The notes below the pieces were generated by a model, which worked only from the letters and a program-made list of their open reading frames with translations, searched no databases and was not told the origin of the DNA. This document shows positions 15,375 to 60,221 of a stretch of 64,000 nt of DNA, piece after piece (the first letter of the stretch is position 1; each line of letters opens with the position of its first letter). The stretch comes from Candidatus Poribacteria bacterium (GTDB lineage Bacteria; Poribacteria; WGA-4E; WGA-3G), in assembly GCA_965218285.1 (NCBI GenBank), contig OZ244616.1:1728133-1792132 (forward strand), in the 5' to 3' direction. Made by a program: the position numbers and the translations under genes.

Positions 15375-15584
15375 GGAGGAAAGTGTATCTATCTAAGATC
15401 TCAAATATCTGAAAATAGTTTACAAAAAGAGACGCAATATTTGCGTCTCTTTTTTATTGGATAAGGATGTTAGTTTCTATGCCCTAAATCACATATAACT
15501 CAAAATAGATTGCCTTCCAACCCATTTTACGGTAAAATAAATATACACATTCACAGAATCAAAATTATAGTATAGGATGAAAAA

Positions 15585-16073
15585 TTGACACAACCCCTAC
15601 TTGAAGTCTCTAATTTAAAAACAGTATTCCCTACAGATGGTGGCGTTGTAAACGCCGTGAACGATGTCAGTTTTTCCATTGCACGTGGTAAAACCGTTGG
15701 CATCGTAGGAGAGAGCGGGTGTGGAAAAAGTATCACCGGACTTTCGCTTCTCCAACTTGTGCCGAATCCGGGCAGGATTGAAAAGGGTGAGATTCTGTTT
15801 TACCGCCAATCACCAAAACACCCCTACACAGAGGCGTTGATATCCGCCGTTCCGCTTCCATATCCAAAGTGGCAACGTGAACGTGAACTTATTCGGCTTG
15901 AAGGAGATGTGCCCGATCCATCTCAACCGCCGACAGGGTGTCATTTCCATCCACGGTGCTGCTATGCAACCGATGTTTGCAAACAGGAAACACCGGAACT
16001 GCGTGAAATCACACCCGATGTTAAAGTTGCGTGCCATCTGAGTGAAACCTTGGAATTGCAAGGAGTATCGTGA
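15585..16073 (+). pseudogene. Deletion-derived hybrid: OppD-like N-terminus (Walker A only) fused in frame to the last ~83 aa of the OppF-like ATPase
   Basis: First ~79 aa are essentially identical to 17493.. (one R/A substitution), then continue with the C-terminal tail of 18553..19554. The junction lies at ...EILFYR|[15 protein letters not shown]. No Walker B or ABC signature remains. Confidence 0.65.
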
Positions 16074-17020
16074 TGCCAAAATTAAATCAGATAACACCAG
16101 AAGAACTCGCATCTTGTAGAAAGCAGCTTGAACGCCAATGGAATAGCCGAAAAGTCGATGAAACATTATTAGAACGTGCGTGGCAAGTCGCTTATGAGAT
16201 TGCTACACTTCTCTATGACGAGTTTGGTGCGACACAGGTTGCTGCCTTCGGGTCGCTTGCAGAACCGATCAGTTTCACAAAGTCATCAGATATTGATATT
16301 GCGGTATGGGGACTCTCGGATAAAGCACATTCAGAGGCGAACAACAAAGTTATGGACATTGGGACAGGATTCAAAATTGACCTCATTAATTTTGATACGA
16401 CGAAAGGACTTTTCCGTGAAAGAGTCCTGCAGCAAGCGATTCCTATAAAGAAAGGTGAACTCCCTACATTATGGAAGACACTTTACCAGCATTTACACCG
16501 TCAAGTTTTCCCTGCCGTGGAGGAAGAAATATACGAAATGAACAGAAAAAAACTCACACAACGTATCAATGATGAACTCGTAAAAATAGAATCTACTGTT
16601 GACGCAATTGCAAAGGCTTTAGAAGATATTGAAGTAGTTCCAACTAACTATAGACAATATATAGAAGAATCAATTGCCAATAAACTTGTCGATGTTTATA
16701 GTGGCATGGAACGAATCTTTGAGCGGATTGCAAACGAAGTGGATGGACATCTACCGCGCGGAAGTAGATGGCATAAGAATTTACTTGAACAGATGACAAA
16801 ACAACGTCCTGAAAGACCACCTGTAATTTCAGAGCAGACATATTACCAATTAGGTGAACTTTTGGATTTCCGCCACAAAGTGAATAACATCTACGGTAGA
16901 GAATTGAAATATGATAGCACATTAGTGCACGCCGAGACAATTGGAGAAGTGTTTGCCAGTGTTTCTCAAGATTTCAATACTTTCACCGATTCACTTGCGA
17001 AAAGCGAGAAGGATACTTGA
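16073..17020 (+). CDS. Fused minimal nucleotidyltransferase (Pol-beta-fold MNT) + HEPN-like domain protein, copy 1
   Basis: NTase motif AFGSLAEPISFTKSSDIDIAV (GS-x11-DxD). C-terminal HLPRGSRWH (R-x4-H). Start ATG overlaps the upstream stop (TGATG) and is preceded by AAGGAG. Confidence 0.6.
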   Translation: MPKLNQITPEELASCRKQLERQWNSRKVDETLLERAWQVAYEIATLLYDEFGATQVAAFGSLAEPISFTKSSDIDIAVWGLSDKAHSEANNKVMDIGTGFKIDLINFDTTKGLFRERVLQQAIPIKKGELPTLWKTLYQHLHRQVFPAVEEEIYEMNRKKLTQRINDELVKIESTVDAIAKALEDIEVVPTNYRQYIEESIANKLVDVYSGMERIFERIANEVDGHLPRGSRWHKNLLEQMTKQRPERPPVISEQTYYQLGELLDFRHKVNNIYGRELKYDSTLVHAETIGEVFASVSQDFNTFTDSLAKSEKDT

Positions 17021-17033
17021 GATTCATTACCTT

Positions 17034-17111
17034 ATACCAAATTAACGGGATTTGTCCTATTTTCCAGACGGTAGGTGCGGTTTCCTAACCGCACTATAGG
17101 CGTCAATTTAA
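17034..17111. repeat. Family-1 MITE variant with REP-like core (ataccaaattaacggga...ggtaggtgcggtttcctaaccgcac...ataggcgtcaattt)
   Basis: Identical arrangement at 20510-20598, after the second MNT-HEPN copy. Confidence 0.6.
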
Positions 17112-17164
17112 AGAAAATATCTGTCCGTTTATGAACACTTCTCAATAGGCATGACTATTGAGAC

Positions 17165-17412
17165 TGTCCTATATTTATACCAAATTAACTTGATTCGAAG
17201 TCTTTTGATAGAGTACACGGTTGCGAGGCACGGGGACCTCGCAGGACAAATCCCGCTAATTCGGTATTATACCAAATTGACTTGATTCGAAGTTTCCCGA
17301 TAAAGTCAAGCATTGCGAGGCACGGGGACCTCGCACTACAAATGATAGAGTACACGGTTGCGAGGCACGGGGACCTCGCGGGACACATCGGGGTAATTGG
17401 GTATAACTCAAA
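17165..17412. repeat. Tandem cluster of three family-1-type hairpin units (gcgaggcacggggacctcgc) with taccaaattgac/taccaaattaac ends
   Basis: Three copies of ...gttgcgaggcacggggacctcgc... spaced about 70-80 bp apart. The cluster lies exactly between the two copies of the duplicated opp/MNT-HEPN module. Confidence 0.65.
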
Positions 17413-17492
17413 ATAGATTGCCTTCCAACCCATTTTACGGTAAAATAAATACACACATTTACAGAAGCAAAATTATAGTATAGGATGAAAAA

Positions 17493-18569
17493 TTGACACA
17501 ACCTCTGCTTGAAGTCTCTAATTTAAAAACAGTATTCCCTACAGATGGTGGCGTTGTAAACGCCGTGAACGATGTCAGTTTTTCCATTGTGCGTGGCAAA
17601 ACCGTTGGCATCGTAGGAGAAAGCGGGTGTGGAAAAAGTATCACCGGACTTTCGCTTCTCCAACTTGTGCCGAATCCGGGCAGGATTGAGAAGGGTGAGA
17701 TTCTGTTTTACCGCGATGAAACAGAGGAACCGTTAGATATAGCGCAAGTATCGCCGCGAAGCGAGTTGATGCGAAAAATACGGGGCAACGAAATCGCTAT
17801 CATCTTCCAAGAACCGATGACATCACTAAATCCTGTCTATACCGTTGGAGACCAGATCGCTGAGGCTATTGTGTTACACCAAGAACATAAACGTTCGACT
17901 CTGGCACGTTTCGGTTTGCAAGCAACACCAAAGTGGGCACGCGAACGTGCTATTGAGATGCTTGCCCGTGTCGGCATCCCCGCACCTGACCAACGTCTTG
18001 ATGAGTATCCGCATCAACTGTCAGGTGGAATGCGGCAACGCGTGATGATTGCCATGGCACTCTGTTGTGCCCCCGCGCTCCTCATCGCAGACGAACCGAC
18101 TACGGCACTTGATGTCACAATTCAAGCACAAGTCCTCACCCTCATGCAGGAACTACAAGCGGAAATCGGGATGGCGATTATGTTGATTACACACGACTTA
18201 GGTGTTATCGCCGATATGGCTGACGAAGTGGTCGTGATGTATGCAGGGCGTGTCGTTGAAAAGGGAAGTGTTGACGACATTTTCTATAATCCTTTGCACC
18301 CATACACGCGTGGCTTGCTCAACTCCATTCCAACGCTTGGGGGTGGTCAGCAAAAAACGCTGCATTCTATTCCCGGAACGGTGCCGCACCCATTAGCACT
18401 GCCTATCGGATGCTCTTTTCAGCCACGATGTGCAGAACATATACCGACCTGTGAACAGATGCCTGAACTCAAGATTATTGATGTTCTCAAAAATACTACT
18501 TCCGAAAACGGTAGGCATGCAGTTAGGTGCTGGCTTTGTGAGGAAAATACCGATGTCGAAACTGCTTGA
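17493..18569 (+). CDS. oppD: Oligopeptide/dipeptide ABC transporter ATP-binding protein (OppD/DppD-like)
   Basis: Walker A GESGCGKS, signature [15 protein letters not shown], Walker [14 protein letters not shown]-terminal oligopeptide-transporter tail. The TTG start is preceded by AGGA. Confidence 0.85.
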
Positions 18570-19554
18570 AGTCAAAGACTTACGTAAATATTTTCCGATA
18601 CGGAAAGGCATTCTCCGTCGAACTATCGGACATGTGAAAGCGGTTGATGGCATTAGTTTCGACGTAGAACGCGGCGAAACCCTTGGATTGGTCGGTGAAA
18701 GCGGCTGTGGAAAGACAACTGCCAGCCGGTGTCTACTCCGCTTAATTTCACCAACAAGCGGCAGCTTCACATTTGGTAATGAACAAGTGGATTTGGCAAA
18801 ATTGACATCTCAACAGATGCGTCCTTTTCGCAGACATATCCAGATGATTTTCCAGGATCCGCAGTCTTCTCTGAACCCTCGTATGACGGTAGAAGGCATT
18901 GTGGGTGAACCGCTGCGCGTTAATCGCACCGTAAAAAGAAATGAACTACGAGACCAAATTGTTGAACTCTTGGAATCTGTCGGTTTAAAACCACAGGACA
19001 TGCGCCGTTATCCGCACGCCTTCAGCGGTGGTCAGCGGCAACGTATCGGAATTGCGCGTGCATTAGCACTCCACCCGGACCTGATCGTAGCAGATGAACC
19101 GGTGTCAGCACTTGATGTCTCCGTGCAGGCGCAAATTCTCAACCTACTGGCGGAGTTGCGTGAAAAATTTCAACTTTCCTATATCTTTATCGCTCATGAC
19201 TTGAGCGTCGTTGAACATATCAGTGATCGTGTGGCAGTGATGTATCTCGGAAAGATTGTTGAGATTAGCGATGCAGCGACACTCTATCAATCACCCAAAC
19301 ACCCCTACACAGAGGCGTTGATATCCGCCGTTCCGCTTCCAGATCCAAAGTGGCAACGTGAACGTGAACTTATTCGGCTTGAAGGGGATGTGCCCGATCC
19401 ATCTCAACCGCCGACAGGGTGTCATTTCCATCCACGGTGCCGCTATGCTACCGATGTTTGCAAACAGGAAACACCGGAACTGCGTGAAATCACACCCGAT
19501 ATTAAAGTTGCATGCCATCTGAGTGAAACCTTGGAATTGCAAGGAGTATCGTGA
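18553..19554 (+). CDS. oppF: Oligopeptide/dipeptide ABC transporter ATP-binding protein (OppF/DppF-like)
   Basis: Walker [36 protein letters not shown], Cys-rich C-terminal tail [14 protein letters not shown]. Start placed at [10 protein letters not shown] with GAGGAA RBS. The track start 18430 is probably too far upstream. Confidence 0.85.
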
Positions 19555-20501
19555 TGCCAAAATTAAATCAGATAACACCAGAAGAACTTGCATCTTGTAG
19601 AAAGCAGCTTGAACGCCGATGGAATAGCCGAAAAGTTGATGAAACGTTAATAGAACGTGCGTGGCAGGTCGCTTATGAGGTCGCAACACTTCTCTATGAC
19701 GAATTCGGTGCAACACAGGTTGCTGTCTTCGGGTCGCTTGCAGAACCGATCAGTTTCACAAAGTCATCAGATATTGATATTGCGGTGTGGGGACTCTCGG
19801 ATAAAGCACATTCAGAGGCGAACAACAAAGTTATGGATATTGGGACAGGATTCAAAATTGACTTGATTAATTTCGATACAACGAAAGGGATTTTCCGAGA
19901 AAGAGTACAACAGCAAGCGATTCCTATAAAGAAAGGGGAACTCCCTACATTATGGAAGACACTTTACGAGCATTTACACCGTCAAGTTTTTCCTACTGTA
20001 GAAGAAGAAATATACGAAATGAACAGAAAAAAACTGACACAACGTATCAATGATGAACTCACAAAAATAGAAGATACGCTCACAAGAATAACAAGAGGGT
20101 TAGAACAACTGAAAGTGGTTCACGTTGATGTCAGAGAATTCATTGAGAATACAATCGCCACAGATCTTGCTGATATCTATAGTGGCATAGAACGAATTTT
20201 TGAGCGGATTGCAAACGAAGTAGATGGACACCTACCACGCGGAAGTAGATGGCATAAGAATTTACTTGAACAGATGACAAAACAACGTCCTGAAAGACCA
20301 CCTGTAATTCCAGAGCAGACATATCACCAATTAGGTGAACTTTTGGATTTCCGCCACAAAGCGAATAACATCTACGGTAGAGAATTGAAATACGATAACA
20401 CATTAGTGCACGCCGAGACAATTGGAGAAGTGTTTGCCAGTGTTTCTCAAGATTTCAATGCGTTCACCGATTCCCTCGCGAAAAGCGAGAAGGATGCTTG
20501 A
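19554..20501 (+). CDS. Fused MNT + HEPN-like protein, copy 2
   Basis: About 90% identical to 16073..17020 except for the divergent patch at 20058-20175. Same TGATG coupling to oppF. Confidence 0.6.
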   Translation: MPKLNQITPEELASCRKQLERRWNSRKVDETLIERAWQVAYEVATLLYDEFGATQVAVFGSLAEPISFTKSSDIDIAVWGLSDKAHSEANNKVMDIGTGFKIDLINFDTTKGIFRERVQQQAIPIKKGELPTLWKTLYEHLHRQVFPTVEEEIYEMNRKKLTQRINDELTKIEDTLTRITRGLEQLKVVHVDVREFIENTIATDLADIYSGIERIFERIANEVDGHLPRGSRWHKNLLEQMTKQRPERPPVIPEQTYHQLGELLDFRHKANNIYGRELKYDNTLVHAETIGEVFASVSQDFNAFTDSLAKSEKDA

Positions 20502-20654
20502 GATTCATTACCTTATACCAAATTAACGGGATTTGCCCTATTTTCCGGGACGATAGGTGCGATTTCCTAACCGCACCATAAGCGTCAATTTAAGAAAATA
20601 TCTGTCCGTTTATGAACACTTCTCAATAGTCATGACTATTGAGACTGTCCTATA

Positions 20655-20770
20655 TTTAGTCCTAGCGAAATGTGAAATAAAACTATAAACATTCCGCCCC
20701 TACGGGGCTGAAGAATTGGGGGGCCTCCGTTGCTATAAACATATCGTCCGGACGGGACTAAAGAGGGTTT
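20655..20770. repeat. Partial or diverged family-5 element
   Basis: ctataaacattccgcccctacggggctgaag ... ctataaacatatcgtccggacgggactaaagagggttt matches the interior and end of 46676-46934. Confidence 0.5.
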
Positions 20771-20868
20771 ATTCCATAAGAACCGGCAGAATACGCGTGT
20801 GGTATTCTGCATTGGTTGCAAACCGCACCTACCGCGTTGGGGACCCCTAAATTGACGCATAAGGTGCG

Positions 20869-21140
20869 GTTAATGAAGATTAATTTATTAATTCGGTAAT
20901 TCTGATCTCTTTTCTGTCTGAATCGCGGATTATCGCAGAGAACGCGGAGGACGCGGAATTAAGAGATTCTTTGTTACCGGCCCGTCTCTGGCGAAAGGAA
21001 ATGTCCGAGACACAAAAGCATTTTCCGCGTCTTCTGTGCCCTCCGCGATTCAGACAACCAGATAATAGACCTCACAGAAGAAAAACATAAAACAAGATGT
21101 CTATGGTTAGAAAATTACCGAATTTATTTGTTAATCTTCA
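20869..21140. repeat. About 270-bp long-hairpin MITE, family 4 (TIR gaagattaatttattaattcggtaattct ... agaaaattaccgaatt(t/a)atttgttaatcttca)
   Basis: Second copy at 27938-28217 is about 95% identical. The interior is a long imperfect palindrome (tctgtctgaatcgcgga...tccgcgattcagaca). Confidence 0.7.
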
Positions 21141-24761: not shown

Positions 24762-24883
24762 TTTCCCTCCCCTCAACGGTCTTGAGTGCCATTTTATAAT
24801 GGCTACATTTATCTGTCAACACTTATTTTGCTGTCAGGCAGAGCCATTCAGTTTTCCATACTTTGATCTGATTTTACCCAGGG

Positions 24884-24913
24884 CCGGTAGGTGCGGTTTC
24901 CTAACCGCACCGG
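24884..24913. repeat. REP-like hairpin ccggtaggtgcggtttcctaaccgcaccgg
   Basis: Perfect 9-bp+ stem. Lies between divergent genes. Confidence 0.6.
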
Positions 24914-24982
24914 ATCTTCATAAGAAAAACGCACGATACCCGAATAATCTCTTAAAACTGAGTGCCTCTGCTATGCAATTAC

Positions 24983-27653: not shown

Positions 27654-27767
27654 TTCCATTATGAGATTTGGTTCGCACACTAAGGTGTAGAATGTCCGAG
27701 GCGCAATGAATTGCGCGAGGACAAACGCGGTTTTTGTTAATGAATAGTTGTCATTCAGAAATGGTAT
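27654..27767. repeat. MITE-like element, family 3 (copy 2)
   Basis: attccattatgaga ... gaggcgcaatgaattgcgcgaggacaaacgcgg ... cagaaatggtat. Confidence 0.6.
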
Positions 27768-27937
27768 TATTTGGGTAATGATAACATACAAAACAAACAT
27801 ATTCAACCGAATTTTAGGAGACAGATGTAAAGTTATTGATAATAAGACTGAGGTTGGGTTGAGTGTAAGCGAAGCTCTTATGTGTCAATTTAAGAAAATC
27901 ACACAACGCTGATATCCAGGACCGGTAGGTGCGGTTT

Positions 27938-28217: not shown

Positions 28218-28553
28218 AAGTTTGCGCTACAAAAGATTGCCGCTCATGTAAAAAGTGTGTGCGGTTGTTTTTAATGAAGGCAGTGGCCACGCGGGTTAAA
28301 CTTTTTCATTAGCACTCATTCTTTACATGAGCCAAGATTGCTTATACCGAGCTCACGTTATTTAGTTTTAGACTTTTTGTCCATATTAACCGAAAAGTCG
28401 CGAGCTGGAGCTCGATCAGACAGCGGAAGGTCTTAAAGCGAAAATCTCAATTTTCGGAAAACTAAATAACCCTACTTGTAGTCAGAAAAACTTGACAATT
28501 CTGTGAAAACCCATTAAAATTCCACGTATTACCCTTCAGCGAAAGGAAAATAT

Positions 28554-30155: not shown

Positions 30156-30181
30156 CATTTTGGTCTGGTTTTTTGCCGCAT

Positions 30182-30214
30182 TCCCGGTAGGTTCGGTTTC
30201 CTAACCGAACCGGA
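30182..30214. repeat. REP-like hairpin variant cccggtaggttcggtttcctaaccgaaccggacc (likely also a terminator for ggt)
   Basis: Perfect stem immediately 3' of ggt. Confidence 0.55.
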
Positions 30215-30249: not shown

Positions 30250-30356
30250 ATACCATTACGGAGATGTCCGACATTTTGAATGTCCGAGGCGCAATGAATT
30301 GCGCGACTACAAACGCGTTTTTTGTTAATGAGATGCTATCATTCAGAAATGGTATA
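30250..30356. repeat. MITE-like element, family 3 (copy 3)
   Basis: ataccattacgga ... core ... cagaaatggtat. Confidence 0.65.
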
Positions 30357-30396: not shown

Positions 30397-31953
30397 CTAA
30401 TGTAAATGTTACTATAGTTTGGACAGTTTGAAGTTTTTTAGAGACAAAAAGCAGAAAAGAGGGTATCCTTTCAGTATATATATTTTTTTTTGAAAGGATA
30501 ATTGAAATGGACCCTCTTCTCCGCTTATATTCTATGTTATCAGAATATCAAGACCACTTCAAGTATAAAAACTTCGACCATTTTCGCACTTTTGTCTTGG
30601 GTTTGATAAATACCCCGCATCGTGGCACCATGACACAGATATATCTATCAACAGAACAATCAACAACCTATTGGCCTCTACCGAAGTTTCTCTCTCGTAG
30701 CGTATGGAGTGTTGATAAAGTCACATCAGTATTGACACAACAAGTTCAATCCGTTTTCAATAAAGGTGTCTATGTCTATGATGAAACCCATTCTACGAAT
30801 GATGGTCTTCAGCAATATGGCACGCATTTCTTCAGAAACACGCGGTATAACAAACGCAACAAGAACCAATCGAAGTTCCATCACGGACACGAGTTCGGTG
30901 CTATCGGTTGGCTCTGTGAAACACCACAAGGGGTGCGTCTGTTTCCGTTAGCGGCTCGGGTGATGTGTCCGGGCAAAAAACGGGATAGCAGTCTTGCGGT
31001 GCTCAAGCGTATCTGTGCTCAGATGCCTGCGGGTCTGATCGTATTTGACAGAGGCTTTAATAGACGCAAGGTGTTTACACAAATCCTTTCACAAGGACAC
31101 CACTTACTCTGTCGCACAAAGTCAAATGCTGTGTTCTTTTATATACCCAAGCCACCCAAGCAACAGGGACAAGGTAGACCGAAACGTTATGGCGGTCGTG
31201 TGCATCTACCCTATCTGCAGTATAGAGATATCATCGTGAAAAACAAGACCCTTTCTGTCGCAGACAAAATCGTGCGGACAAAAATGTGTCCGGTGGATGT
31301 GCGGCTCGTTGTGATACGCACACGCCCAAAGAAGTCTAAACCCTATCGCTATTTTTGTTTATTCACCTCCGACTTAGAACGTCCGGTAGCCGAGTTGATC
31401 CAACACTATAGAAATCGGTGGCAGATTGAAACCGCATTCCGAGATGTCAAACAGAACTTCGGTTTTGATACCTATCAACTCCGAAAACGCAAGAGTTTGA
31501 ACCGGTTTGCTCAACTCAGTTTTGTCGCAGCAACTCTCACACAACTCATTTTCACAAAGACAACGACCAACACAGCATCAGAAACGAATATAGACGATGT
31601 GCCTCTTGACTTAGAAGACGTGCTGCTTGCCCTAAATAGGCATTGGTATAAAGCCAAATATCTCACACGCGGGTTGATGACCGCTTATTTGCAACGATGT
31701 TTCCAACAACAATGTTTTTCTACGAGTTACGATACAAGACAAAACTCAAAGAAAAATCTAAAAATAGTTGAAGACTCTACATGAAAATGAGCAGATGGAC
31801 ATATTTGGACGATTATTTCAAAAATAATGGCTAAAGGACAGTGATTTCCAACAGAATTCAGAGATGCAAGAGTGTGGACAAACCATATTTAACTCCTGAT
31901 CGGAAGTCCTGACAGGATAAAACTGTCCAAACTATAGTAAATGTTAGAATGGA
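30397..31953 (+). mobile_element. IS4-family insertion sequence, about 1.56 kb, imperfect ~33-bp terminal inverted repeats
   Basis: Left end ctctaatgtaaatgttactatagtttggacagttt. Right end aaactgtccaaactatagtaaatgttagaatgg. A single transposase ORF lies inside. Confidence 0.75.
30507..31784 (+). CDS. IS4-family DDE transposase
   Basis: YRNRWQIETAFRDVKQ (Y-x2-R-x3-E-x6-K signature). Confidence 0.85.
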   Translation: MDPLLRLYSMLSEYQDHFKYKNFDHFRTFVLGLINTPHRGTMTQIYLSTEQSTTYWPLPKFLSRSVWSVDKVTSVLTQQVQSVFNKGVYVYDETHSTNDGLQQYGTHFFRNTRYNKRNKNQSKFHHGHEFGAIGWLCETPQGVRLFPLAARVMCPGKKRDSSLAVLKRICAQMPAGLIVFDRGFNRRKVFTQILSQGHHLLCRTKSNAVFFYIPKPPKQQGQGRPKRYGGRVHLPYLQYRDIIVKNKTLSVADKIVRTKMCPVDVRLVVIRTRPKKSKPYRYFCLFTSDLERPVAELIQHYRNRWQIETAFRDVKQNFGFDTYQLRKRKSLNRFAQLSFVAATLTQLIFTKTTTNTASETNIDDVPLDLEDVLLALNRHWYKAKYLTRGLMTAYLQRCFQQQCFSTSYDTRQNSKKNLKIVEDST

Positions 31954-33388: not shown

Positions 33389-34129
33389 TTAGTAATACTT
33401 TTTCATTTGTGCCCAACTGACAGCTAACTTCCCGCGTGCATCAACAGCAAGCACCTGATCCCACGGAATATTTTCACCGCTTGCATCGGCTTGATGAACA
33501 TCATCAAAGTTCGGATGTCCCCAACCGCCGCTGCTTTTATCAACAACAACAAGTTGGACGGTTTTGCCTTTGAGATCGGAAACATCCCACTCTCGCCGGG
33601 TCATGGTTTCTGTTTCATTACCGGTCATTGTCAGTTCAACCTTGTCATTAATCACAAGATTGACACAACATGGCTCAGCAGTACCCCAAGCACGGTTGCC
33701 GCCGCCCATAAGAAAATTCATCGTTTCTCCGACAATTGTAAACTCAATTGAGGTCAAGGTGCCTTGAGGGAGATCCGGTTGACCGTTACCCGCAAGATCA
33801 CCAGCATCCTGCCCCAGTTTTGCTCCTTTATCCGGTCCTTGGTACTTTTCAGCTAATCCAAGCCACCAATCGCCTTGATGTTGAGAAGGCTGCCCACGGT
33901 CCCGTGCTGTTGGGTTATCTCCCCACGTCGGTTGAAAATCAAATGCGTCTCCTGTTTTCTCCTCCCAATCGGTGAGGTCGCCTGTCTCAAAATCATTGTT
34001 AAACGATCGCGCAAAGGCGAGATTGACAGGCAAAACAAACAGGATCGCAAGAACAGAGGGTATCATAACTGAGAAAAACATTCTTGTGATATTCCCATGA
34101 CTAAAGTCGTGGGCTTCTTGCTTCTTCAT
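33389..34129 (-). CDS. Secreted jelly-roll (LamG/DUF1080-like) protein
   Basis: Start at MKKQ preceded by AGGAGG, with a signal peptide. C-terminal tail GKLAVSWAQMKKYY. Confidence 0.4.
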   Translation of the reverse strand: MKKQEAHDFSHGNITRMFFSVMIPSVLAILFVLPVNLAFARSFNNDFETGDLTDWEEKTGDAFDFQPTWGDNPTARDRGQPSQHQGDWWLGLAEKYQGPDKGAKLGQDAGDLAGNGQPDLPQGTLTSIEFTIVGETMNFLMGGGNRAWGTAEPCCVNLVINDKVELTMTGNETETMTRREWDVSDLKGKTVQLVVVDKSSGGWGHPNFDDVHQADASGENIPWDQVLAVDARGKLAVSWAQMKKYY

Positions 34130-34141
34130 CCGATGCCTCCT

Positions 34142-34525
34142 CTTGTGGAGGTCTGACTTAGACTCCACAAGCGTTTATACTCTCCGCGTATCCCGCGGCG
34201 AGTTGATTATTAAGTGTCCACGTTGATAAGAAATTATCATTGTCTAAATTCGCTTTGAAATTAGATAACGCATGATTGTCCGCGAAACGTGCATAACCAC
34301 ATTGTTGAGCAAACCACGCACGCTGCTTTTTATTTGGATTTAACGCTATCTTGTGTGTTTTGAACATTATGATATACCGTTCTGACAGGATTCCGTTCCC
34401 TTATCAAAGGTGTAGTCCGTGTTGATGCCCGGACTACTGAACGGTCTAATTAGTATAACATAATTGCATATATAAAACAAGAACTTTAAACACTTTTTTG
34501 ACCCACAGCTAAAGCAGTGGGATTG
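34142..34525 (-). mobile_element. B-type IS200/IS605-related non-autonomous element (terminal hairpins conserved with 52638-52945)
   Basis: 5' hairpin cttgtggaggtctgacttagactccacaag and 3' hairpin gacccacagctaaagcagtgggattg. The interior encodes a TnpB N-terminal remnant. Confidence 0.5.
34158..34367 (-). pseudogene. TnpB (IS605 OrfB) N-terminal remnant, 69 codons
   Basis: HKIALNPNKKQRAWFAQQCGYARFADNHAL fits the TnpB N-terminal consensus (K-x-rL-P-x2-Q...G-x-aRf-x-N-x-aL). No RuvC or zinc-finger part remains. Confidence 0.5.
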
Positions 34526-34539
34526 TTAAGTACTCACTT

Positions 34540-34860
34540 TATCAAAATCTTCGGTGTGGAAACCCCTTGCTTTAGCAGGTGGAGGAAACACCGCTCTTTT
34601 TTTTAGATTAAAAACAGACTGTTTTTTCGGCACCTGTTTGTGGCCGATTTCTTTCGGTGTACTGCTTCGTTCAGTCCATCTCGCACCTTAGACTTAATAG
34701 ACCTGACACGGTTCCGTGAGAAAAGCAGGTAAAAACTCCGCAAAGCGGTATATGTTGCCCCATCCAGATCGCAAGAACCAAGAGGTGTGAGACTTGGGGA
34801 GCATCCTTAAGCAACGTCCCACCACAGAACGTTACCGTTTGACACACATTGTTAACCCTG
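34540..34860 (+). repeat. Diverged A-type structured repeat (block homology to 2205-2612), directly abutting the B-type element
   Basis: Shared blocks: atcaaaatcttcgg..ggaggaaa, tgcttcgttcag, gacctgacacg, gcggtatatgtt(t/g)cccc, gacttggggagcatcc. Confidence 0.5.
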
Positions 34861-35023
34861 CCTACTCAATATATAATATTAATAATACACTTTTGGCGTG
34901 CTTGTGTCAAGAAAATTCTGAGCTTCTTTAGGGACATTTAGTTTTCAGAAAATAGATATTTTCGGTTTACACTTCTTCTCTGTAGGAACGACCTTTCGGT
35001 TAAAATCGACAAAAAGCGTAAAA

Positions 35024-35641
35024 CTAAATAGCTCTTCCTGAAATAAACTGCCTTGCAAAAATGAATCCGATAACACACACAATTGCAGTCAGGGTGCGTC
35101 TTTCACTTTTGATAGCACGTGCCAAAGAAAAGTCGTGTTCAGATGGTGTTGAATAGGGATGAAATTGCGGTAGGAAGCGAGGCACCTGCTCTTGATAATT
35201 TTGATAAATCAATCCACAAGATTCCAACAGATACGTCTCTTCTACAGTAATGATGGGCAGATATTGAATTAAATATCCAATTATTAATATTGGAATCAAC
35301 CAAAGAACGTTGGCAACTATACAGACGCCGAAACTGAGCAGAAAGTTACCGAGATAGAGCGGGTTGCGAACATAACTATACGGACCTGTTGTAACAAGAT
35401 CGCGAGCTGCACCGAGCGTTGTGGCACGCGTAGAACCACCGGCATATCCAACTGCCCATATTCGGAGAAATTCTCCTAAAGCAATGAATAAAATACCTAT
35501 TGCTGCGGTGTACCAAGTTGGTTTTGCAAAAAAAAGCAATGCGAAAATAAACGGAACAGGGGTGAAACTGCGGATTTTGAAGAAGAAATTACCGAGTTTT
35601 GGGGAAATCATGATAGACGTTGATAACTGTGAGGACAACAT
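35024..35641 (-). CDS. Isoprenylcysteine carboxyl methyltransferase / phospholipid methyltransferase family membrane protein
   Basis: VTTGPYSYVRNPLYLG motif and multiple TM helices. Confidence 0.7.
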   Translation of the reverse strand: MLSSQLSTSIMISPKLGNFFFKIRSFTPVPFIFALLFFAKPTWYTAAIGILFIALGEFLRIWAVGYAGGSTRATTLGAARDLVTTGPYSYVRNPLYLGNFLLSFGVCIVANVLWLIPILIIGYLIQYLPIITVEETYLLESCGLIYQNYQEQVPRFLPQFHPYSTPSEHDFSLARAIKSERRTLTAIVCVIGFIFARQFISGRAI

Positions 35642-35698: not shown

Positions 35699-36760
35699 CT
35701 ATTTGGGTGTGCGCCATATTAGGATACTGCCCACAATACCATACAGTATGTTTGCTCCCCAACAGGCTACAAACGGATGAAGTTTGCCGTTCTCACTGAG
35801 TCCTTCAAGTGTTGCAAAGGAAAGTGCCCAATAGATAAAGACAAGGAAAAAAGCGATGACTAATCCCGCAAAAAATCCTGCTTTTCCGAAACGGATCGCA
35901 ATCGGTGCACCCAACATAACAACAACAACAGCTGCAAACGGATATGCCGTTTTATGGTGCAATTTCACGTGTTCAATCCGTGAAATTTGTCCTGCTTCCT
36001 TTTTATAGGCAATTTGTTCCTTAAGTTCCTTAATTGTCATCGCCCTCGGATCTTTGTCGCTACCAACGAAACGTGCGGGGTCTTCAGAACGTTCCATAGA
36101 TTTTTCTTTAAATGTCTCATAGGAGATCTCTATTTTACTCTCAAAGCGGCGGATATGTCCATTTTTCAACATCCAGTGTGTCGGTGTCCACGTGGCTTCC
36201 TTAGCGTAAATGATACGTTCTAATTCTCCGGATACATCTGATTCCCAGATAGTCAAACTACGAATATTTTGTTCTTTTAAGTCGACTCGATGTGAATAAA
36301 AGATACGATTATCTTTCCCTTTAAAAACGAGATGGTTTCCGAAGCGACGGGGGGTTTTTTTCTGCAAGAGATTTGCTTCATGGTAAGCAGGGGATGCGAT
36401 GCGGTTATAAAAAATGGCAAAAAACGCGCAAATTACCAAAGTTACAATCAGGACTGGAGCAAGGATTCTGTAAACACTTATTCCGCCAACTTTCATTGCA
36501 ACAAATTCGTTATTACGAACCATTCGACCAAGGACGAAAAAGATAGCAACAAAGCCAGATACCGGCACGATCTCCATTATCCGCCGAGGTGCTTGGTACA
36601 GAACAATCTTCACAGCGGTGAAATAAGTGATGCTGTCATCAAAATTTTTGATATCCTTATCTAATAAACGAACGATGACAACGAGTGCGCTAAAGAAAAA
36701 GAAGCCTATAAAAAAGGCTTTGATGTATTCTTTAATTAGATACCGGTCTAAAATATTCAA
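35699..36760 (-). CDS. LptF/LptG-family (YjgP/YjgQ) LPS export permease
   Basis: Six-TM permease architecture with a large periplasmic loop. Paired with the adjacent paralog. Confidence 0.75.
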   Translation of the reverse strand: MNILDRYLIKEYIKAFFIGFFFFSALVVIVRLLDKDIKNFDDSITYFTAVKIVLYQAPRRIMEIVPVSGFVAIFFVLGRMVRNNEFVAMKVGGISVYRILAPVLIVTLVICAFFAIFYNRIASPAYHEANLLQKKTPRRFGNHLVFKGKDNRIFYSHRVDLKEQNIRSLTIWESDVSGELERIIYAKEATWTPTHWMLKNGHIRRFESKIEISYETFKEKSMERSEDPARFVGSDKDPRAMTIKELKEQIAYKKEAGQISRIEHVKLHHKTAYPFAAVVVVMLGAPIAIRFGKAGFFAGLVIAFFLVFIYWALSFATLEGLSENGKLHPFVACWGANILYGIVGSILIWRTPK

Positions 36761-36783
36761 GCGACTATCCTATTTTCTACACA

Positions 36784-37986
36784 TTAAGATTCCGCGTTTC
36801 TATTGACAACCAGCGATATTTTGCGGTCTCTATTACGCCATGCCTTTAGTTTACCTTCACCAAACATCCTTGTAATGAGCACTATTCCAAGCACACCAAC
36901 AACAAGATTTGGAATCCACATAGCAAAGGCAGGGTGCACTGTGCCGCTTACGCCACTACTTTGTCCAATTTGAAGTAGAAGATAATATAGTAGTATCACA
37001 CCTAATCCAATACCAAATCCAATCATTCTTCCGTTCTTTTTCACCATAAATCCGAGCGGGATACCGATTAACCCAAACGCCAAGCAAGCAAACGGGAGAG
37101 CAAATTTTTTGTAGTATTCAACCTTAGCATAGCGAAGTCTATTAATCAAGAACTCAGAGGGTTTGTCTGGCTTCCAAGATGCAGTTAATTTTCCGATGTG
37201 TGTCTTAAGTTCCCCAATATGCATTGTTTGTGGATGCCGGGTATTATATTCGCGCCGTTGTAGGTCTTTATTGAAGTCGAGCACAAGTTGTTGTTCCTGA
37301 AATTGGGTAACTCTGAAACCTTCAGAACCATCAGTTTGGGGTTCATAGGTATGCCCATCGTAAAGCGTCAACTTAGCGTTACCATTTTCAAAACCGAGAC
37401 TTGCAGATTTCGCAAGAGTGAAACGCGGTTGTCCTGGAAAAATTTCGTCCCAGATTCTCACATTCTGAAGACGTTCTGTTTCTGGATCAGTGGATTCATA
37501 CATCCAGAGTTTACCTTCAGACTCAAGTTCCTTCATAACGGTGTCTTCTTCTAAAATGAGTGCTGGATTGTGTTTTTGGATATCGCGTTTAAGTGAGACA
37601 GAAGCGAGTGTGGCTTTTGGCAACACATATTCCATCACTGCAAGGTCAATTACACTTAAGATAACTGTTGCACATAAAAGGGGTATCATGAGTTGATGGT
37701 AACCGATGCCATGTGCCCGCATTGCCATTATCTCTGAATCCGTAGAGAGACGCCCTAATGCCAGAAGAATTGCGACCAACGCCGCCATCGGAATTGATAA
37801 AACAATCGTTGCTGGCATCACGTACATCAGTGATTCAATGAGGTAAAGAGGGCTAACCCCTTTTTTAACGAAAAGTTTGACAAGTCGAAAAAGTTCATCA
37901 AAAAGTATAATACAGGTAAAACAGATAAGAGCAATTAAAAATGGTGGAATGAACTCTTTAAGACAATAACGTGAAAGAATTTTCAT
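36784..37986 (-). CDS. LptF/LptG-family (YjgP/YjgQ) LPS export permease
   Basis: N-terminus MKILSRYCLKEFIPPF typical of LptF/G. Confidence 0.75.
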   Translation of the reverse strand: MKILSRYCLKEFIPPFLIALICFTCIILFDELFRLVKLFVKKGVSPLYLIESLMYVMPATIVLSIPMAALVAILLALGRLSTDSEIMAMRAHGIGYHQLMIPLLCATVILSVIDLAVMEYVLPKATLASVSLKRDIQKHNPALILEEDTVMKELESEGKLWMYESTDPETERLQNVRIWDEIFPGQPRFTLAKSASLGFENGNAKLTLYDGHTYEPQTDGSEGFRVTQFQEQQLVLDFNKDLQRREYNTRHPQTMHIGELKTHIGKLTASWKPDKPSEFLINRLRYAKVEYYKKFALPFACLAFGLIGIPLGFMVKKNGRMIGFGIGLGVILLYYLLLQIGQSSGVSGTVHPAFAMWIPNLVVGVLGIVLITRMFGEGKLKAWRNRDRKISLVVNRNAES

Positions 37987-41679: not shown

Positions 41680-41764
41680 AGTTTAGACTCCTTTTATAAG
41701 AATTCGGTTTGTCAAGAATAACCTTGGTCGGTGCTTTCGGTATTACAAATCTGAAGGATATCTT

Positions 41765-42188
41765 CATCAAAATCTTCGGGCTGGAGCCCCCTCGCCTTTA
41801 GGCAGGGGAGGAAAGCCCGCCTCCTATTATAGTTATAATTTGTCCCCAAAAGGGGGAGTGCTGTTTTATCTCCACCTGCACACTGGGAGTCTGGATTCAG
41901 TTGTGCTGCTTCGTTCAGTGAGACTGTCACTACTCGCTTACTTGACCTGACACGATGTCTTTACCAGAAAATAATGGCTATAAGCCCACGCTCTCGCGGT
42001 ATATGTTTCCCCATCGACATCATGGGATCAGAGCGGATACAGACTTGGGGAGCATCCGTAACATCTTGTGGTTTCCTGCCACGACAAGACCCGCGATATA
42101 TCGTCTAGTCAACCGTTTAACTTGTGGAGTGGCCGCTTGGCATGCGCTTCGCACAAGCCCCGATGCTTTAGCGCGGGGTTATTGACTA
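41765..42188 (+). repeat. A-type structured repeat, copy 2
   Basis: About 97% identical to 2205-2612 over about 400 nt, with different flanks. Confidence 0.6.
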
Positions 42189-42288
42189 TAAAGTATTAAG
42201 TTCAAAATGTCAAATTATATTTCTCAGCAGATAAAGAAACTGTATGACATAAATACACAATAAGGCAAACTAACAGATACGCAATCTT

Positions 42289-49180: not shown

Positions 49181-49287
49181 CCAAATTAACTTATACCCAA
49201 TTAACCCGATTTGTAGCGCGAGGTCCCCGGGTCCTCCTCGCAATGCTGATTTTATCAGAAGACGTCTAATCAAGTTAATTTGGTATT
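49181..49287. repeat. Family-1 MITE
   Basis: ccaaattaac...gcgaggtccccgggtcctcctcgc...gttaatttggtat. Confidence 0.65.
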
Positions 49288-52064: not shown

Positions 52065-52598
52065 CTATTTTGTAGCACCCCGCATTATCGCTATTTTGCC
52101 GGTGCGCGCTAATTCAAGAATACCGTATGCGTTAAAAATCTCAATCGCCGCTTCTAATTTACCTTCATCACCAGTAATTTCAATCACGAGGGACTCAGGC
52201 TTTGTATCTATAACCCGCGCACGGAAGACCTCTGCAACTTGTAAAATCTCAGTGCGTTTCTGCGGATCAGCAGTGCAAATCTTGAGGAGAAGGAGTTCAC
52301 GTTCAACATGCGTGCCGACAGAAAGGTCTGTAACCTCAATAACGTCAATCAGTCTGTTTAGATGCTGGTAAATCTGATCAATAATCTGTGCATCCCCATG
52401 TGTTACAAGCGTAATCTGTGAGATGCTCTTGTCATGTGTTTCAGCGACGTTGAGACTGTCGATATTGAAACTACGTCCGCTAAAAAGTCCTGCGACACGT
52501 GCAAGCACTCCAAATCGGTTTTCGACCAAAACCGAAAAAATATGTCGTTCTTCTTTAGTGATACTCACTACGGCTAAAGCCGTGTGCTTCTTTTGCAC
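52065..52598 (-). CDS. ilvH: Acetolactate synthase small (regulatory) subunit
   Basis: ACT domain [20 protein letters not shown] start preceded by AGGAGA. Confidence 0.9.
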
Positions 52599-52637
52599 AC
52601 AACTCTCCTATGTGATTCCTGCTTCTGTCTCTCGTGC

Positions 52638-52945
52638 CTCCGAATGAGGTCTTACTTGGACTCCACAGGCGTAACTTTCCGTGTATCCCACGGTAGGTTG
52701 TTAGTGAATGTGGTAGGGTCGTTGTCCTAACAACGGACATTAGTTTTTCTCTACCACATTCTAATGTTTTAAGTGATTTCGCACCAGCATCACACACCTT
52801 TCCACAGGTGAGGGATAGGACCCATACAGGTTGTCCGGGGTGGAAACCCTATCCACGATGGGACATATAGTCCAACATGTTTTGGTGCAAATGTCATAAG
52901 TTTTTTGACCCACGGCTAAAGCAGTGGGATTGTCAGCTAATTCCC
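52638..52945 (-). repeat. B-type IS200/IS605-related structured element in the ilvB-ilvH spacer
   Basis: Both terminal hairpins (gaggtcttacttggactccacaggcg; gacccacggctaaagcagtgggattg) match 34142-34525. The interior is unrelated. Confidence 0.5.
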
Positions 52946-53083
52946 TTCATTTTATGCTAACTTTTCCCTCGCCTTACAGGCGAATCGGTTTTGATGGGAT
53001 GTGAGGAGAATAGTGTTTATCCGGAATTACACGAGAATAGACAAGAAGTGTTTTGTGCCTTGTTCTCCTCACAGACGTGGAAT

Positions 53084-54760
53084 TTAAGATAGTCCTCGGA
53101 TTACATCCCCAAGACCCGCTCCCGCGGGCACCATCGGGAATACGTTCTCCTCTTCGTCAACAATGAAATCAATGACAACAGGACCGTCGTTAATACCTTT
53201 TGCCTTCAGTAATGCGGGTTCAACATCTTCGGGATGTTCAACCCGAAGACCGGTCGCACCAAATGCTTGTGCAAGCAAGGCGAAATCAGGATTGTCGTGG
53301 TAATCAACAGCAGAATAACGTTTGTCATGAAACAATTCCTGCCATTGACGCACCATCCCTAAATACATATTGTTGATGATAAATATCTTAAGCGGCAACT
53401 TCATCGTAACCGCAGGCACCAACTCTTGTATAGTCATTATATAGGACCCATCGCCGTTGATATTGACAACGGTTTTCTCTGGGCATCCGAGTTGTGCACC
53501 GATTGCAGCTGGCAGACTGAAACCCATCGTGCCGAGACCGCCAGAGTTGAGCCACGTCCGAGGTTCGGTAAATTTGAAATATTGTGCCGCCCACATCTGG
53601 TGTTGCCCGACATCCGCTACAACAATAGCATCACTATAGTGTTCATAAATCTGCTCTATGACATATTGTGGCATCACTTTATTGCCTTTTTGCTCGTATT
53701 CAAACGGATATTTCTGTTTCCATTCCTGAATCTGATCGCGCCACGGATCAATATCTGTTGTACCGACTTGCTTATTTAATTCGGTAAGGACATTCTTTGC
53801 ATCACCAACAATTGGCACATCTACTGGCACATTTTTCCCGATACAAGAAGCATCGATATCAATATGTATCTTTTTCGCATTCGGTGCGAATTTACTCAAA
53901 TTACCAGTAACCCTGTCATCAAATCTTGCCCCAATAGCAATAACGAGATCCGCATCAGTGAAAGCGTAATTGGCGCAGCAAGAGCCATGCATACCGGGCA
54001 TCTCCATCGCCAACGGGTGTGTCTCTGGAAATGCGCCGAGTCCCATCAAGGTGACAGTAATAGGGATACGTGTTTTGAGGGTTAACTCTCGCAGCTCTTC
54101 ACTTGCATTGGCAAGCACAACACCACCGCCAGCATAAAGCATCGGACGTTTAGCTTCCTTGATTAATGCAACGGCTTTGGCAATTTGCGCTGGATCCCCA
54201 TGCACTTGTGGTTTATAACTGCGAATGTCAACTGTTTCTGGATATTGAAACAAGGTTTTGTGGAGCTGAGCATCTTTAGCGATGTCAATAATAACAGGAC
54301 CCTGTTTCCCTGTGCTAGCGATATGGAATGCTTCTGCAACAACATCGGCTACCTCATTGCTGTCTTTGATAAGATAACTGTGCTTACAGATCGGTCGAGT
54401 TACACCGATAACATCACATTCTTGGAAAGCATCGCTGCCGATATGGTGGGTGTACACCTGCCCGGTAATCGCAACCATCGGAATTGAATCCATATAGGCA
54501 GTTGCAATTCCGGTAACAAGGTTAGTTGCGCCAGGACCGGAGGTAGCGAGTGCAACCCCGACCTTCCCCGTGGCGCGTGCATATCCATCAGCAGCGTGAG
54601 AGGCTCCCTGCTCATGCCGCATCGGAATCAAATTTACTTCTGTTTCGTCGTACAGGGCATCAAAAATCGGCATTGCCGCGCCACCGTTAACACCGAAGAT
54701 ATATTCGACACCTTCACGTTTGAGACTATCAACCAGGATTCTCGCTCCTGAAAGTTCCAT
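53084..54760 (-). CDS. ilvB: Acetolactate synthase large subunit
   Basis: TPP-enzyme blocks GVPGDSIPMVAITGQV-like and GGLGTMGFSLPAAIGAQ. Start at MELSGARI, preceded by GAGGAA. Confidence 0.9.
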   Translation of the reverse strand: MELSGARILVDSLKREGVEYIFGVNGGAAMPIFDALYDETEVNLIPMRHEQGASHAADGYARATGKVGVALATSGPGATNLVTGIATAYMDSIPMVAITGQVYTHHIGSDAFQECDVIGVTRPICKHSYLIKDSNEVADVVAEAFHIASTGKQGPVIIDIAKDAQLHKTLFQYPETVDIRSYKPQVHGDPAQIAKAVALIKEAKRPMLYAGGGVVLANASEELRELTLKTRIPITVTLMGLGAFPETHPLAMEMPGMHGSCCANYAFTDADLVIAIGARFDDRVTGNLSKFAPNAKKIHIDIDASCIGKNVPVDVPIVGDAKNVLTELNKQVGTTDIDPWRDQIQEWKQKYPFEYEQKGNKVMPQYVIEQIYEHYSDAIVVADVGQHQMWAAQYFKFTEPRTWLNSGGLGTMGFSLPAAIGAQLGCPEKTVVNINGDGSYIMTIQELVPAVTMKLPLKIFIINNMYLGMVRQWQELFHDKRYSAVDYHDNPDFALLAQAFGATGLRVEHPEDVEPALLKAKGINDGPVVIDFIVDEEENVFPMVPAGAGLGDVIRGLS

Positions 54761-55453
54761 GCCAATTTCCTCATAAACGGTTGTAGGCACATTACGTCGT
54801 GCCATAAACTTGTTGAAAGAAAAAACCCTCTCGTTCCACCTTTGGAGACGAGAAGGATGCTAAACTCACCTTTCCGTGGTACCACTCCAATTTACTCACT
54901 CGGTTTCAAGGCGATTATTCTAATCAACCCATCTATGCCGAGAGAGCACTCTTTGGGATGCAATAACGGACATCACACCGGCTAACCTTACTAAAAAACC
55001 ATTCAGATTAGCAGCTCCAGGACGACTTTCAGTCGTGGGTACTTGAGGCAACCTCTCAGCCTACGAGTCACCTTCTCTTACAAGACCGTCAGACCTACTC
55101 TTCCCCTTCAACGCTTTTTATAATCTATTTAATTTTTTATTTGACACGCCGTTCTTGCTAACGCTCACGGGTGTTTCTGAATTCTGTTATTTTACCCTCT
55201 AATTATAACACATCTGAACGGAAATGTCAAGAAAAAGTAGAACTTGCTTGTCTATTTAGTATTCTAACCGCACCTACCGTTCATGGAGGACCGCTAAATT
55301 GAAACCTATGGGTTTCACATTCGTTCAAACTCGCCAAATTCCATAAGCGCATTTGGCGTTGATTCCCTATGACTAAATTTGAACTATCAGTTTCCGTAAT
55401 CTCAATCAGAAGATTAAGACTATGGAAACGGAAAGTTTGTTAAGGGAGGTTGA

Positions 55454-60147: not shown

Positions 60148-60221
60148 TTTACCCTCGCAACTTGTCGTTCCGAAGTGCTGAATGTCTGACTACATTTCCT
60201 CTTGATAACACTTTCATCTGG

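Follow-up and report, generated by a model that had tools for sequence, protein, structure and literature searches.

The repeats described here have their closest counterparts among the RNA-guided elements of the IS200/IS605 family. In iscB elements, the omega RNA is bounded by the right end (RE) of the element (Meers et al. 2023, bioRxiv 10.1101/2023.03.14.532601), and IsrB, a protein of ∼350 aa, has an omega RNA of ∼300 nt and the target-adjacent motif (TAM) 5′-NTGA-3′ (Hirano et al., PMC9581776). Standalone omega RNAs are mentioned by Hirano et al. (PMC9581776) and, together with elements like the palindrome-associated transposable elements (PATEs), are attributed to Altae-Tran et al. 2021 (as cited in PMC9581776); PATE-like IS200/IS605 elements are also reported by Meers et al. 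(2023, bioRxiv 10.1101/2023.03.14.532601). We analysed five repeats in a 64,000-nt stretch of a Candidatus Poribacteria genome (contig OZ244616.1, positions 1,728,133–1,792,132; the whole stretch is called the window). They are very probably non-autonomous members of two IS200/IS605 lineages, namely type A, which carries the guide RNA of the Cas9-ancestor nickase IsrB but lacks isrB, and type B, a deleted form of a TnpB-only element; both would be mobilized in trans. The class is already known, as PATEs or standalone omega RNAs. Two features stand out: an additional RNA domain in type A (domain X), and the targeting of start codons together with an apparent in-frame restart.

Type A shares with standalone omega RNAs, PATEs and ORF-less HEARO RNAs (RF02033; ORF, open reading frame) the lack of a protein gene, subterminal hairpins at both ends, a scaffold running from the RE, a TAM at the left end (LE) and many copies with differing flanks; in all of these TnpA and the nuclease are presumed to act in trans. 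It differs from standalone omega RNAs in having an extra, covarying and pseudoknotted domain of ∼160 nt in place of the nuclease ORF and in lying often exactly at host start codons, and it differs from HEARO in scoring only 27–36 bits where the gathering score is 83. The IsrB–omega RNA system of DtIsrB (8DMB, PMC9581776) resembles three Poribacteria elements found here (L018, L019 and L071): these encode an IsrB of ∼342 aa that has an RRXRR/PLMP N-terminus but no HNH domain, with the RNA located upstream of isrB and NTGA as the TAM. The RNA region is ∼200 nt in Poribacteria compared with a 262-nt scaffold for DtIsrB, and the type A copies of the window lack isrB. Type B has the LE–tnpB–RE layout of IS1341-type (tnpB-only) elements, with an intact relative of 368 aa, and one of its copies, B1, keeps both ends and the 3′ region encoding the TnpB omega RNA. 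Unlike these, type B has the TAM (A)TGAAG, usually a host Met-Lys start, and an RE with an outward, in-frame Shine–Dalgarno (SD) motif and start codon.

Five copies of two element types

Searching the window with nhmmer profiles of both types recovered five copies and none further, in agreement with the original prediction, made from the DNA letters alone, of five copies of two related element types. Type A is represented by A1 (2203–2613), A2 (41768–42186) and A3 (34543 to ∼34876), and type B by B1 (34088–34536) and B2 (52560–52944), all read on the minus strand. The places predicted were right and all of the hairpins and sequence blocks quoted are present; both type B starts had been set ∼55–80 nt too far in, with the omission of an extra hairpin.

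A1 and A2 are full-length and 97% identical (repeat families D6, D15 and D19; alignment), with A1, detected by alignment and nhmmer, followed by the TAM GTGA at 2199–2202 and A2 by ATGA at 41764–41767. A3 is diverged, with ∼51–63% identity to the other copies across the shared part. B1 and B2 have ∼125 nt in common at one end and ∼60 nt at the other, and their interiors are unrelated (alignments). The LE and RE of B2 are as in B1; its differing interior is non-coding and holds no tnpB remnant.

Homology of type A to isrB elements

Type A is an ORF-less unit of ∼420 nt. The Rfam HEARO model, built for the omega RNA of IscB, matches the minus strand of A2 at 41936–42186, from the first base of the element (31.1 bits, E = 1.2e-4), and six further type A copies at four loci (26.7–35.6 bits, E = 0.097 to 7e-4). 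The matches always fall on the same strand and begin at model position 1 and element base 1, with E-values of ∼1e-4 to 0.1 that come from small searches. Since the scores are well below the gathering score, we treated HEARO as a lead and not as membership.

The evidence that, as judged from sequence homology, is decisive for the identity of type A comes from L018 (MKWU01016204.1), a full isrB element consisting of RE, a 200-nt RNA region, a 343-aa ORF and LE. Its 5′ sequence GGTCAACTACCC...GGATGCTCCCCAAGTC...CCCGAAAGGG, as in type A, spans 200 nt up to the ATG of the ORF. The ORF product matches Pfam RRXRR (E = 1e-28), its top match in the Protein Data Bank is IsrB 8DMB (E = 7e-33), and IscB proteins match it over the N-terminus only. 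The stop codon of the ORF overlaps the homologue of the other end of type A (GGAGCGGGCATTCCTCCC...CCCGAAGATTAGATGA). blastn aligns A2 with L018 over 138 nt in the RNA region (78% identity) and over the 61-nt LE (79%), so type A is collinear with both.

Two more isrB elements, L019 on a 5.89-Mb contig and L071, have ends as in type A. In all three the RNA region lies directly upstream of isrB, is bounded by the RE and is collinear with the 5′ domain of type A; the first ∼200 nt of type A thus match the omega RNA upstream of isrB in related Poribacteria elements. The NTGA that directly follows the LE of type A is the published IsrB TAM. Since ATGA or GTGA directly adjoins the end of type A, excision would leave the 5′ flank that matches the guide next to NTGA, as the IsrB model requires. 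These homologies place type A in the IsrB/IscB lineage, with a HEARO-like omega RNA, and not with TnpB, as the original prediction had implied for both types; its RNA lies on the strand opposite to the one then described. Poribacteria are rich in close homologues of IsrB and of TnpB: contigs of genome size carry several, and one of 5.89 Mb carries both.

The isrB element of L018 (2700–4110) is flanked by remnants of a zinc-type alcohol dehydrogenase gene, namely its first ∼25 codons on one side and its last ∼55 on the other, and the insertion is therefore associated with the loss of most of the gene.

Ends, TAM and mobility of type A

Full type A copies begin with GTCAATAACCCC, diverged ones with GTCAGTGACCCC. 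The full copies finish ...CCCGAAGA(TTTT/GT)G, followed by ATGA or GTGA, and beyond these end points the flanks are unrelated. RTGA is found 3′ of the element on the RNA strand in 16 of the 18 copies; on the top strand this corresponds to TTCAT/TCAY 5′ of the LE. The two exceptions, A3 and L001, have ATAA at this position. On the plus strand, the subterminal hairpins of type A are CCCCGATGCTTTAGCGCGGGG (RE) and CCCCTCGCCTTTAGGCAGGGG (LE), in the same orientation and without terminal inverted repeats. Both lineages have subterminal hairpins of the TnpA type (CCCNNNNCTTTAGNNNNGGG on the top strand of the transposon), and in types A and B alike there is a conserved target or TAM at the LE only, with no flanking direct repeats.

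Using two invariant type A blocks as a search pattern, we found 11 copies at 10 loci on the chromosome of a Candidatus Poribacteria metagenome-assembled genome (OZ250160.1), one locus having a second, shortened copy. The pattern also found one locus in Poribacteria WGA-3G, and more copies lie on sponge-type metagenome contigs and one IMG/VR contig. Type A copies are 90–98% identical at at least 15 sites with unrelated flanks, and the window and OZ250160.1 have only the elements in common, so they belong to different Poribacteria genomes. A ∼420-nt unit with base-exact ends at many sites, all with different flanks, is far beyond chance. Removing the type A copy L002 in silico leaves a continuous host ORF. 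No copy among the 18 has an ORF of its own behind it or a nuclease gene beside it.

Structure of the type A RNA and domain X

To analyse the structure, we aligned 12 type A copies (∼70% mean column identity) and folded the alignment with RNAalifold, which gave 73 pairs. Paired cells amount to 95.9%, compared with 37–46% in controls with slid partners, and 33 of the 73 pairs show compensatory double changes, compared with 5–9. The covariation score is 0.346 (0.04–0.08 in slid controls), and the observed pairing values were reached by none of 500 shuffles. Compensatory base changes, raised earlier as the test of a structured RNA, are therefore present, and A3 contributes to them. When two isrB-linked RNAs were added, the helices of the 5′ domain were kept, with compensatory changes in 19 of 38 pairs. 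This domain folds better in the sense (minus-strand) orientation than in antisense (−35.7 versus −22.5 kcal/mol). The LE hairpin folds better on the strand opposite to the RNA sense, as expected of a TnpA substrate.

The candidate partners for adaptor and nexus pseudoknots like those of the solved IsrB and IscB RNAs (the GCUCCCCAA loop and GGGG) are invariant across copies and hence give no covariation signal, and the pseudoknot of the Rfam HEARO alignment was not supported by L011. A long-range GGGG/CCCC helix proposed by RNAalifold (columns 224–227 with 397–400) was dropped, as it shows no compensatory change.

Between the omega RNA scaffold and the LE lies domain X, ∼160 nt in the position that isrB holds in L018 and L019. 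The blocks tgcttcgttcag and gacctgacacg lie within it. Immediately ahead of domain X, the L015 subtype still retains the isrB ribosome-binding stretch GGAGATTAC. Compensatory changes are found in 17 of 28 pairs of domain X, compared with 1–5 in slid controls, and include changes in two interleaved helices that form a predicted H-type pseudoknot. The interior of type A is therefore a separate conserved structured domain. We also observed complementarity between the invariant GUCAGGUC(A/U)A of domain X and the 3′ strand of the first omega RNA stem. An origin of domain X as leftover isrB coding sequence was considered and rejected: alignment scores are within the shuffle distribution and tblastn gave no match.

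Domain X has no match in Rfam and was not found outside type A by nhmmer in ∼230 kb of loci. A pattern scan of viral contigs gave 38 stretches, 37 of which are chance occurrences without a match to the profiles of domain X or type A; the other is the known copy L012. Possible roles of domain X are to stabilize the RNA, to recruit IsrB in trans or to aid translation of the gene downstream.

In A2, the RE and the 5′ end of the omega RNA start at 42186 with GUCAAUAACCCC, followed on the minus strand by the first hairpin (42158–42178), the GGAUGCUCCCCAAGUC hairpin (42042–42057), domain X (∼41807–41972) and the LE hairpin (∼41787–41808). A sigma-70-like promoter with 11 of 12 matches is present at 42185–42213 (minus). 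Its −10 element, TATAGT, is made of host TATA and the first two bases of A2; an RNA initiated there would begin within the omega RNA and have no guide.

At gathering thresholds, the only Rfam match in the window is a T-box leader. E-value scans of the elements gave HEARO and noise (ST7-AS1, ceN61, sroC and miRNA models on palindromes), with no match to group II intron, RNase P, tmRNA, OLE or ROOL models, the other known classes named in the original prediction.

Type B elements derive from TnpB elements by deletion

On the minus strand, the subterminal hairpins of type B are CCCACTGCTTTAGCTGTGGG (LE) and CCCACGACTTTAGTCATGGG (RE). Each copy in the window has an additional cccaNNNctaaagNNNtggg hairpin with a ctaaag loop, at 34094–34113 in B1 and 52569–52584 in B2.

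The 69-codon ORF of B1 (34158–34367, minus), predicted to resemble the TnpB N-terminus, matches Pfam PF12323 (HTH_OrfB_IS605) with 28.5 bits (E = 1.1e-6), above the curated cut-off of 21. Its product corresponds to residues 1–55 (96% identical) and 354–368 (93%) of P0129, an intact TnpB of 368 aa with helix-turn-helix (HTH), OrfB_IS605 and Zn-ribbon domains. Having the HTH and the last 15 residues only, it is a remnant and not a TnpB. The LE, leader and RE of B1 align base for base with the intact element. Together with the two ends of the ORF, this identifies an in-frame internal deletion of ∼298 codons of tnpB (∼56–353).

B2 and a third copy, in L008, retain only the ends, with no tnpB. The closest database relatives of the 69-aa remnant are other short remnants, among them P0002, which joins an N-terminal HTH to a C-terminal Zn ribbon. 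A frameshifted, nearly full-length tnpB copy is present in L024, and with its ORF as query we found intact TnpBs of 364–369 aa, some annotated as Candidatus Poribacteria transposase or TnpB. At one site, seen in L065–L070, an intact TnpB element encoding P0196 lies before a DUF433/DUF5615 (antitoxin/toxin-like) pair in at least five Poribacteria assemblies; this insertion appears to be vertically inherited and fixed.

Read inward, the type B RE (GTGATATTCCC..CTAAAG..GGGCTT...ACTCCACAAG) shows homology to the ∼100 nt with which type A begins, and tnpB runs antisense to the type A RNA. This geometry is expected, because a TnpB omega RNA exits via the RE on one strand and an IsrB omega RNA enters via the RE on the other. 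Types A and B belong to separate IS lineages, with only the TnpA-type hairpins and part of the RE in common.

Both types are found at host start codons

We noted that the RTG of the TAM is frequently the start of a host gene. At 9 of the 19 independent type A and isrB sites, a long host ORF with a credible N-terminus (signal peptides, a Rossmann N-terminus, icd) begins with this RTG, and at several of them host SD motifs are found immediately 5′ of the element. Under a generous null, in which any RTGA or ATGAA with at least 80 open codons behind it is counted (16–20% of sites), this adjacency has p ∼0.002–0.007. Part of the bias may be due to purifying selection against insertions within genes.

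For type B, (A)TGAAG, the Met-Lys start of a host gene, precedes the LE at five of six sites; the remaining site, L008, is 5 nt ahead of a stop codon. A host SD motif is present upstream of ATGAAG at L064 (AAGGAG) and L068 (AAGGAGG), and the corresponding stretch at L024 is weakly SD-like. Joining ATGAAG to the base after ...TATC gives plausible host N-termini: MKRIGYSTWGMP for an AP_endonuc_2-family protein (L064), MKKQKRVLIIIS for an NfeD-type protease (L024), MKKKEQIVSRNP for a DUF433 protein (L068), MKTRMFFSVMIPSVLAILFVLPVNLAFA for a secreted protein (B1), and the N-terminus of IlvN (B2). In-silico removal of the element thereby restores the host reading frames at L064, L024, L068 and B2.

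The type B RE itself carries an SD motif and an ATG or GTG at 42, 42, 42, 48 or 39 nt from its terminus. This start codon is in frame with codon 3 of the host gene at all five independent sites, across four RE variants and despite indels, so gene callers fuse the RE start to the host gene. B2, for example, lies between ATGAAG (52945–52950) and codon 3 of ilvN, splitting the ilvB–ilvN operon, and its RE provides GGAGAG and a GTG (52598) in frame with ilvN. This conserved frame suggests that translation of the host gene could restart from the RE start codon.

The literature that we searched holds no description of TGAAG/Met-Lys targeting or in-frame RE restart in tnpB-only elements, nor did we find start-codon insertion by both types described there. 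Tentatively, the two Poribacteria IS200/IS605 lineages could have become specialized for landing at start sites and keeping up host expression, the gene-less IsrB form having gained the pseudoknotted domain X; we consider this possible but somewhat doubtful.

The ilvB–ilvN operon split by B2 is also preceded by the T-box leader (RF00230; 54841–55120, minus; 101.9 bits, above gathering), upstream of ilvB (53084–54805, minus). T-boxes are known mainly from Firmicutes and a few other phyla, whereas this genome is of Gram-negative type.

Proposed mechanism and alternative explanations

We propose that a TnpA (Y1) encoded elsewhere would excise the elements and insert them as single strands at TAMs. 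Read-through from an upstream host gene would yield a type A RNA with flanking DNA as its 5′ guide. The RNA proper (∼400 nt) would consist of the IsrB omega scaffold from the RE, then domain X and then the LE hairpin; the guide-bearing transcript would be ∼400–440 nt long, of minus-strand sense, and would start ∼16–20 nt upstream of GUCAAUAA. IsrB from an intact copy, or TnpB for type B, would use the RNA in trans to nick or cut the emptied donor site, where recombination would then reinstall the element. We infer from the published model for this family the expression of the type A RNA, the trans action of IsrB, TnpB and TnpA, and the homing.

Several observations weigh against this proposal. 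No type A copy reaches the HEARO gathering score of 83 bits (best 35.6), and domain X is absent from any described omega RNA that we compared. There is no isrB or intact tnpB in the window (Pfam on 18 ORFs, tblastn), and no credible TnpA was found by tblastn in 225 kb with an IS200 TnpA query. The two strands of domain X fold almost equally well (−15.6 versus −13.9 kcal/mol). The best promoter-like sites beside A2 and A3 would yield guide-less RNAs, and A3, which lacks the guide-adjacent stem, is probably dead as a guide RNA. A 43-aa similarity to IS200 TnpA (E = 0.01) lies inside a DNA methylase ORF (56451–59135) and was judged to be due to chance.

The type A copies might alternatively be inert fossils that have lost isrB and are passively carried along or still moved by TnpA, and whose RNA is functionless, any common structure being due to common descent. 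This would fit with the absence of a nuclease gene beside all 18 copies, with the truncation of A3 and with an RNA whose expression is only predicted. We nevertheless consider it unlikely, because compensatory changes (33 of 73 pairs; 17 of 28 in domain X) far exceed those in slid controls, the helices are kept in subfamilies only ∼70% identical, and the interior is no random isrB remnant. A second possibility is that type A, mainly domain X and the LE, has been co-opted to support expression of the host gene downstream, or as its leader, keeping the gene translated after an insertion that separates ribosome-binding site from start codon; the guide role would be secondary or lost. The RTG of the TAM is the host start at 9 of 19 sites with host SD motifs just 5′, 9 of 12 copies keep AGGAG immediately 5′ of the LE stem, and promoter-like sites abut A2 and A3. 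Yet the genes downstream have no functional relation to one another, other copies are located between genes or within an ORF, AGGAG is also coding sequence in isrB elements, and transposition fully accounts for the ends and the TAM, so that we regard a leader module as very improbable. Least credible of all, and in our view barely worth retaining, is that type A is a plus-strand TnpB-type omega RNA or a right-end remnant. The hairpins and ∼100 nt of RE that it has in common with type B, which has a TnpB remnant, could suggest this, but the type A RNA is antisense to the tnpB orientation set by those hairpins, the HEARO matches and isrB-linked homologues are all on the minus strand, and type A contains no tnpB-derived sequence.

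The reading of the repeats as non-autonomous IS200/IS605 derivatives, already put forward in the original prediction, is thus borne out by their ends, TAMs, copies at many sites and in-silico excision. A mobile, guide-RNA-like structured RNA, then offered as an alternative, applies to type A, as judged from its isrB-linked homologues and covariation. That conserved ends with a variable interior betray a deletion derivative was correct for B1, with its in-frame tnpB deletion, and fails for type A, the interior of which is not an isrB remnant.

A3 and B1 lie head to head

At 34 kb, a type A and a type B copy adjoin each other. A3 (34543–34876, minus) lacks the 5′ end of type A, that is, the RE, stem S1 and the first hairpins: profile positions 93–414 match 34876–34539 (nhmmer, E = 6.5e-69) and the first ∼100 nt are gone. 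Upstream of ∼34876 its identity to other copies is 30–37%, which is the random level, compared with 51–63% for the rest. A decayed 5′ end in an otherwise full-length A3 was considered instead of truncation and rejected, because of the random identity upstream of ∼34876. On the minus strand, it contains the GGAUGCUCCCCAAGUC hairpin (34792–34807), domain X (∼34603–34729) and the LE hairpin (34563–34582). A sigma-70-like promoter (TTGACA-17-TATTAT; 34882–34910, minus; 11 of 12 matches in a consensus scan only) abuts it.

Between A3 and B1 are six host bases, ATAAAG (34537–34542, minus). They hold both the TAM position of A3 (ATAA; consensus ATGA) and the TAM of B1 (TAAAG; consensus TGAAG), and probably represent a former ATGAAG (Met-Lys) start of the downstream host gene, its ATG now being ATA. 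A3 would then have inserted just 5′ of the host ATGA, and B1 just 3′ of the ATGAAG. The overlap of the two TAMs explains the head-to-head layout.

B1 (34088–34536, minus), the TnpB-type element with the internal deletion, comprises the LE hairpin (34503–34522), the tnpB leader, the 69-codon tnpB remnant, the cttgtggag/ctccacaag hairpin (34142–34171), the SD motif and ATG internal to the RE (ATG at 34127–34129) and the RE hairpin (34094–34113). The host gene, for a secreted protein, continues from codon 3 after B1 (33389–34087, minus), beginning ACA AGA ATG TTT. It is in frame with the ATG of the RE of B1, giving the translation MKKQEAHDFSHGNI + TRMFFSVMIPSVLAIL...

Nearby is one copy of an inverted-repeat family, CGACCTTTCGGTTAAAATCGACAAAAAGCGTAAAACTAAATA (34989–35030), which is also found at 28359–28400 and at L022:1–28. 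In L022, a metagenome contig otherwise 99% identical over this locus, a CGACCTTTCGGTTAAAATCGACAAAAAGCGTAAAACTAAATA copy stands in place of the LE of B1 and all of A3, so insertions and rearrangements are clustered at this spot. LptF/G-like permeases are encoded at 35699–37986, as in a Gram-negative-type genome.

Other repeats and genes in the window

A palindromic repeat family with the core GGTGCGGTTTCCTAACCGCACC has at least seven copies in both orientations, often paired with TAAATTGACGC (6860–7466, 13490–13531, 17032–17116, 20514–20884, 24869–24915 and 30169–30214). It looks like repetitive extragenic palindromic (REP) sequences or miniature inverted-repeat transposable elements (MITEs). 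Another family, GAGGCGCAATGAATTGCGCGACTACAAACG..., has four copies in the window (7058–7106, 13859–13942, 27685–27768 and 30273–30356) and one at L002:1139–1244; its palindrome gave spurious mir-2242 matches in the E-value mode of Rfam. Repeats with the hairpin GCGAGGCACGGGGACCTCGC and TTATACCAAATTAAC ends are direct and inverted, and tandem at 17.2–17.4 kb (1858–1958, 17175–17428, 49187–49284 and 60215–60313).

The window also contains a segmental duplication (15494–17020 and 17402–20501, 91–98% identical) of oligopeptide ABC-transporter ATPase genes, each set being followed by a fused ORF of 316 aa of nucleotidyltransferase/HepT-like (MNT-HEPN) type. An intact-looking DDE transposase at 30507–31784 (plus; Pfam DDE_5/DDE_Tnp_1, IS4/IS701-like) is unrelated to types A and B.

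Implications

Type A is a well-defined, multi-copy family of gene-less IsrB guide-RNA elements in an uncultivated phylum of sponge symbionts, and its copies are natural examples of omega RNAs that must act in trans. Domain X would be a new RNA module on an omega RNA, relevant to RNA stabilization and loading and to compact IsrB/IscB editors. If start-codon targeting and the restart prove to be genuine adaptations, they would illustrate how transposons guided by RNA lower the cost of their insertion; to our knowledge, the self-splicing of IStrons is the sole other strategy known in the IS200/IS605 family for limiting harm to the host.

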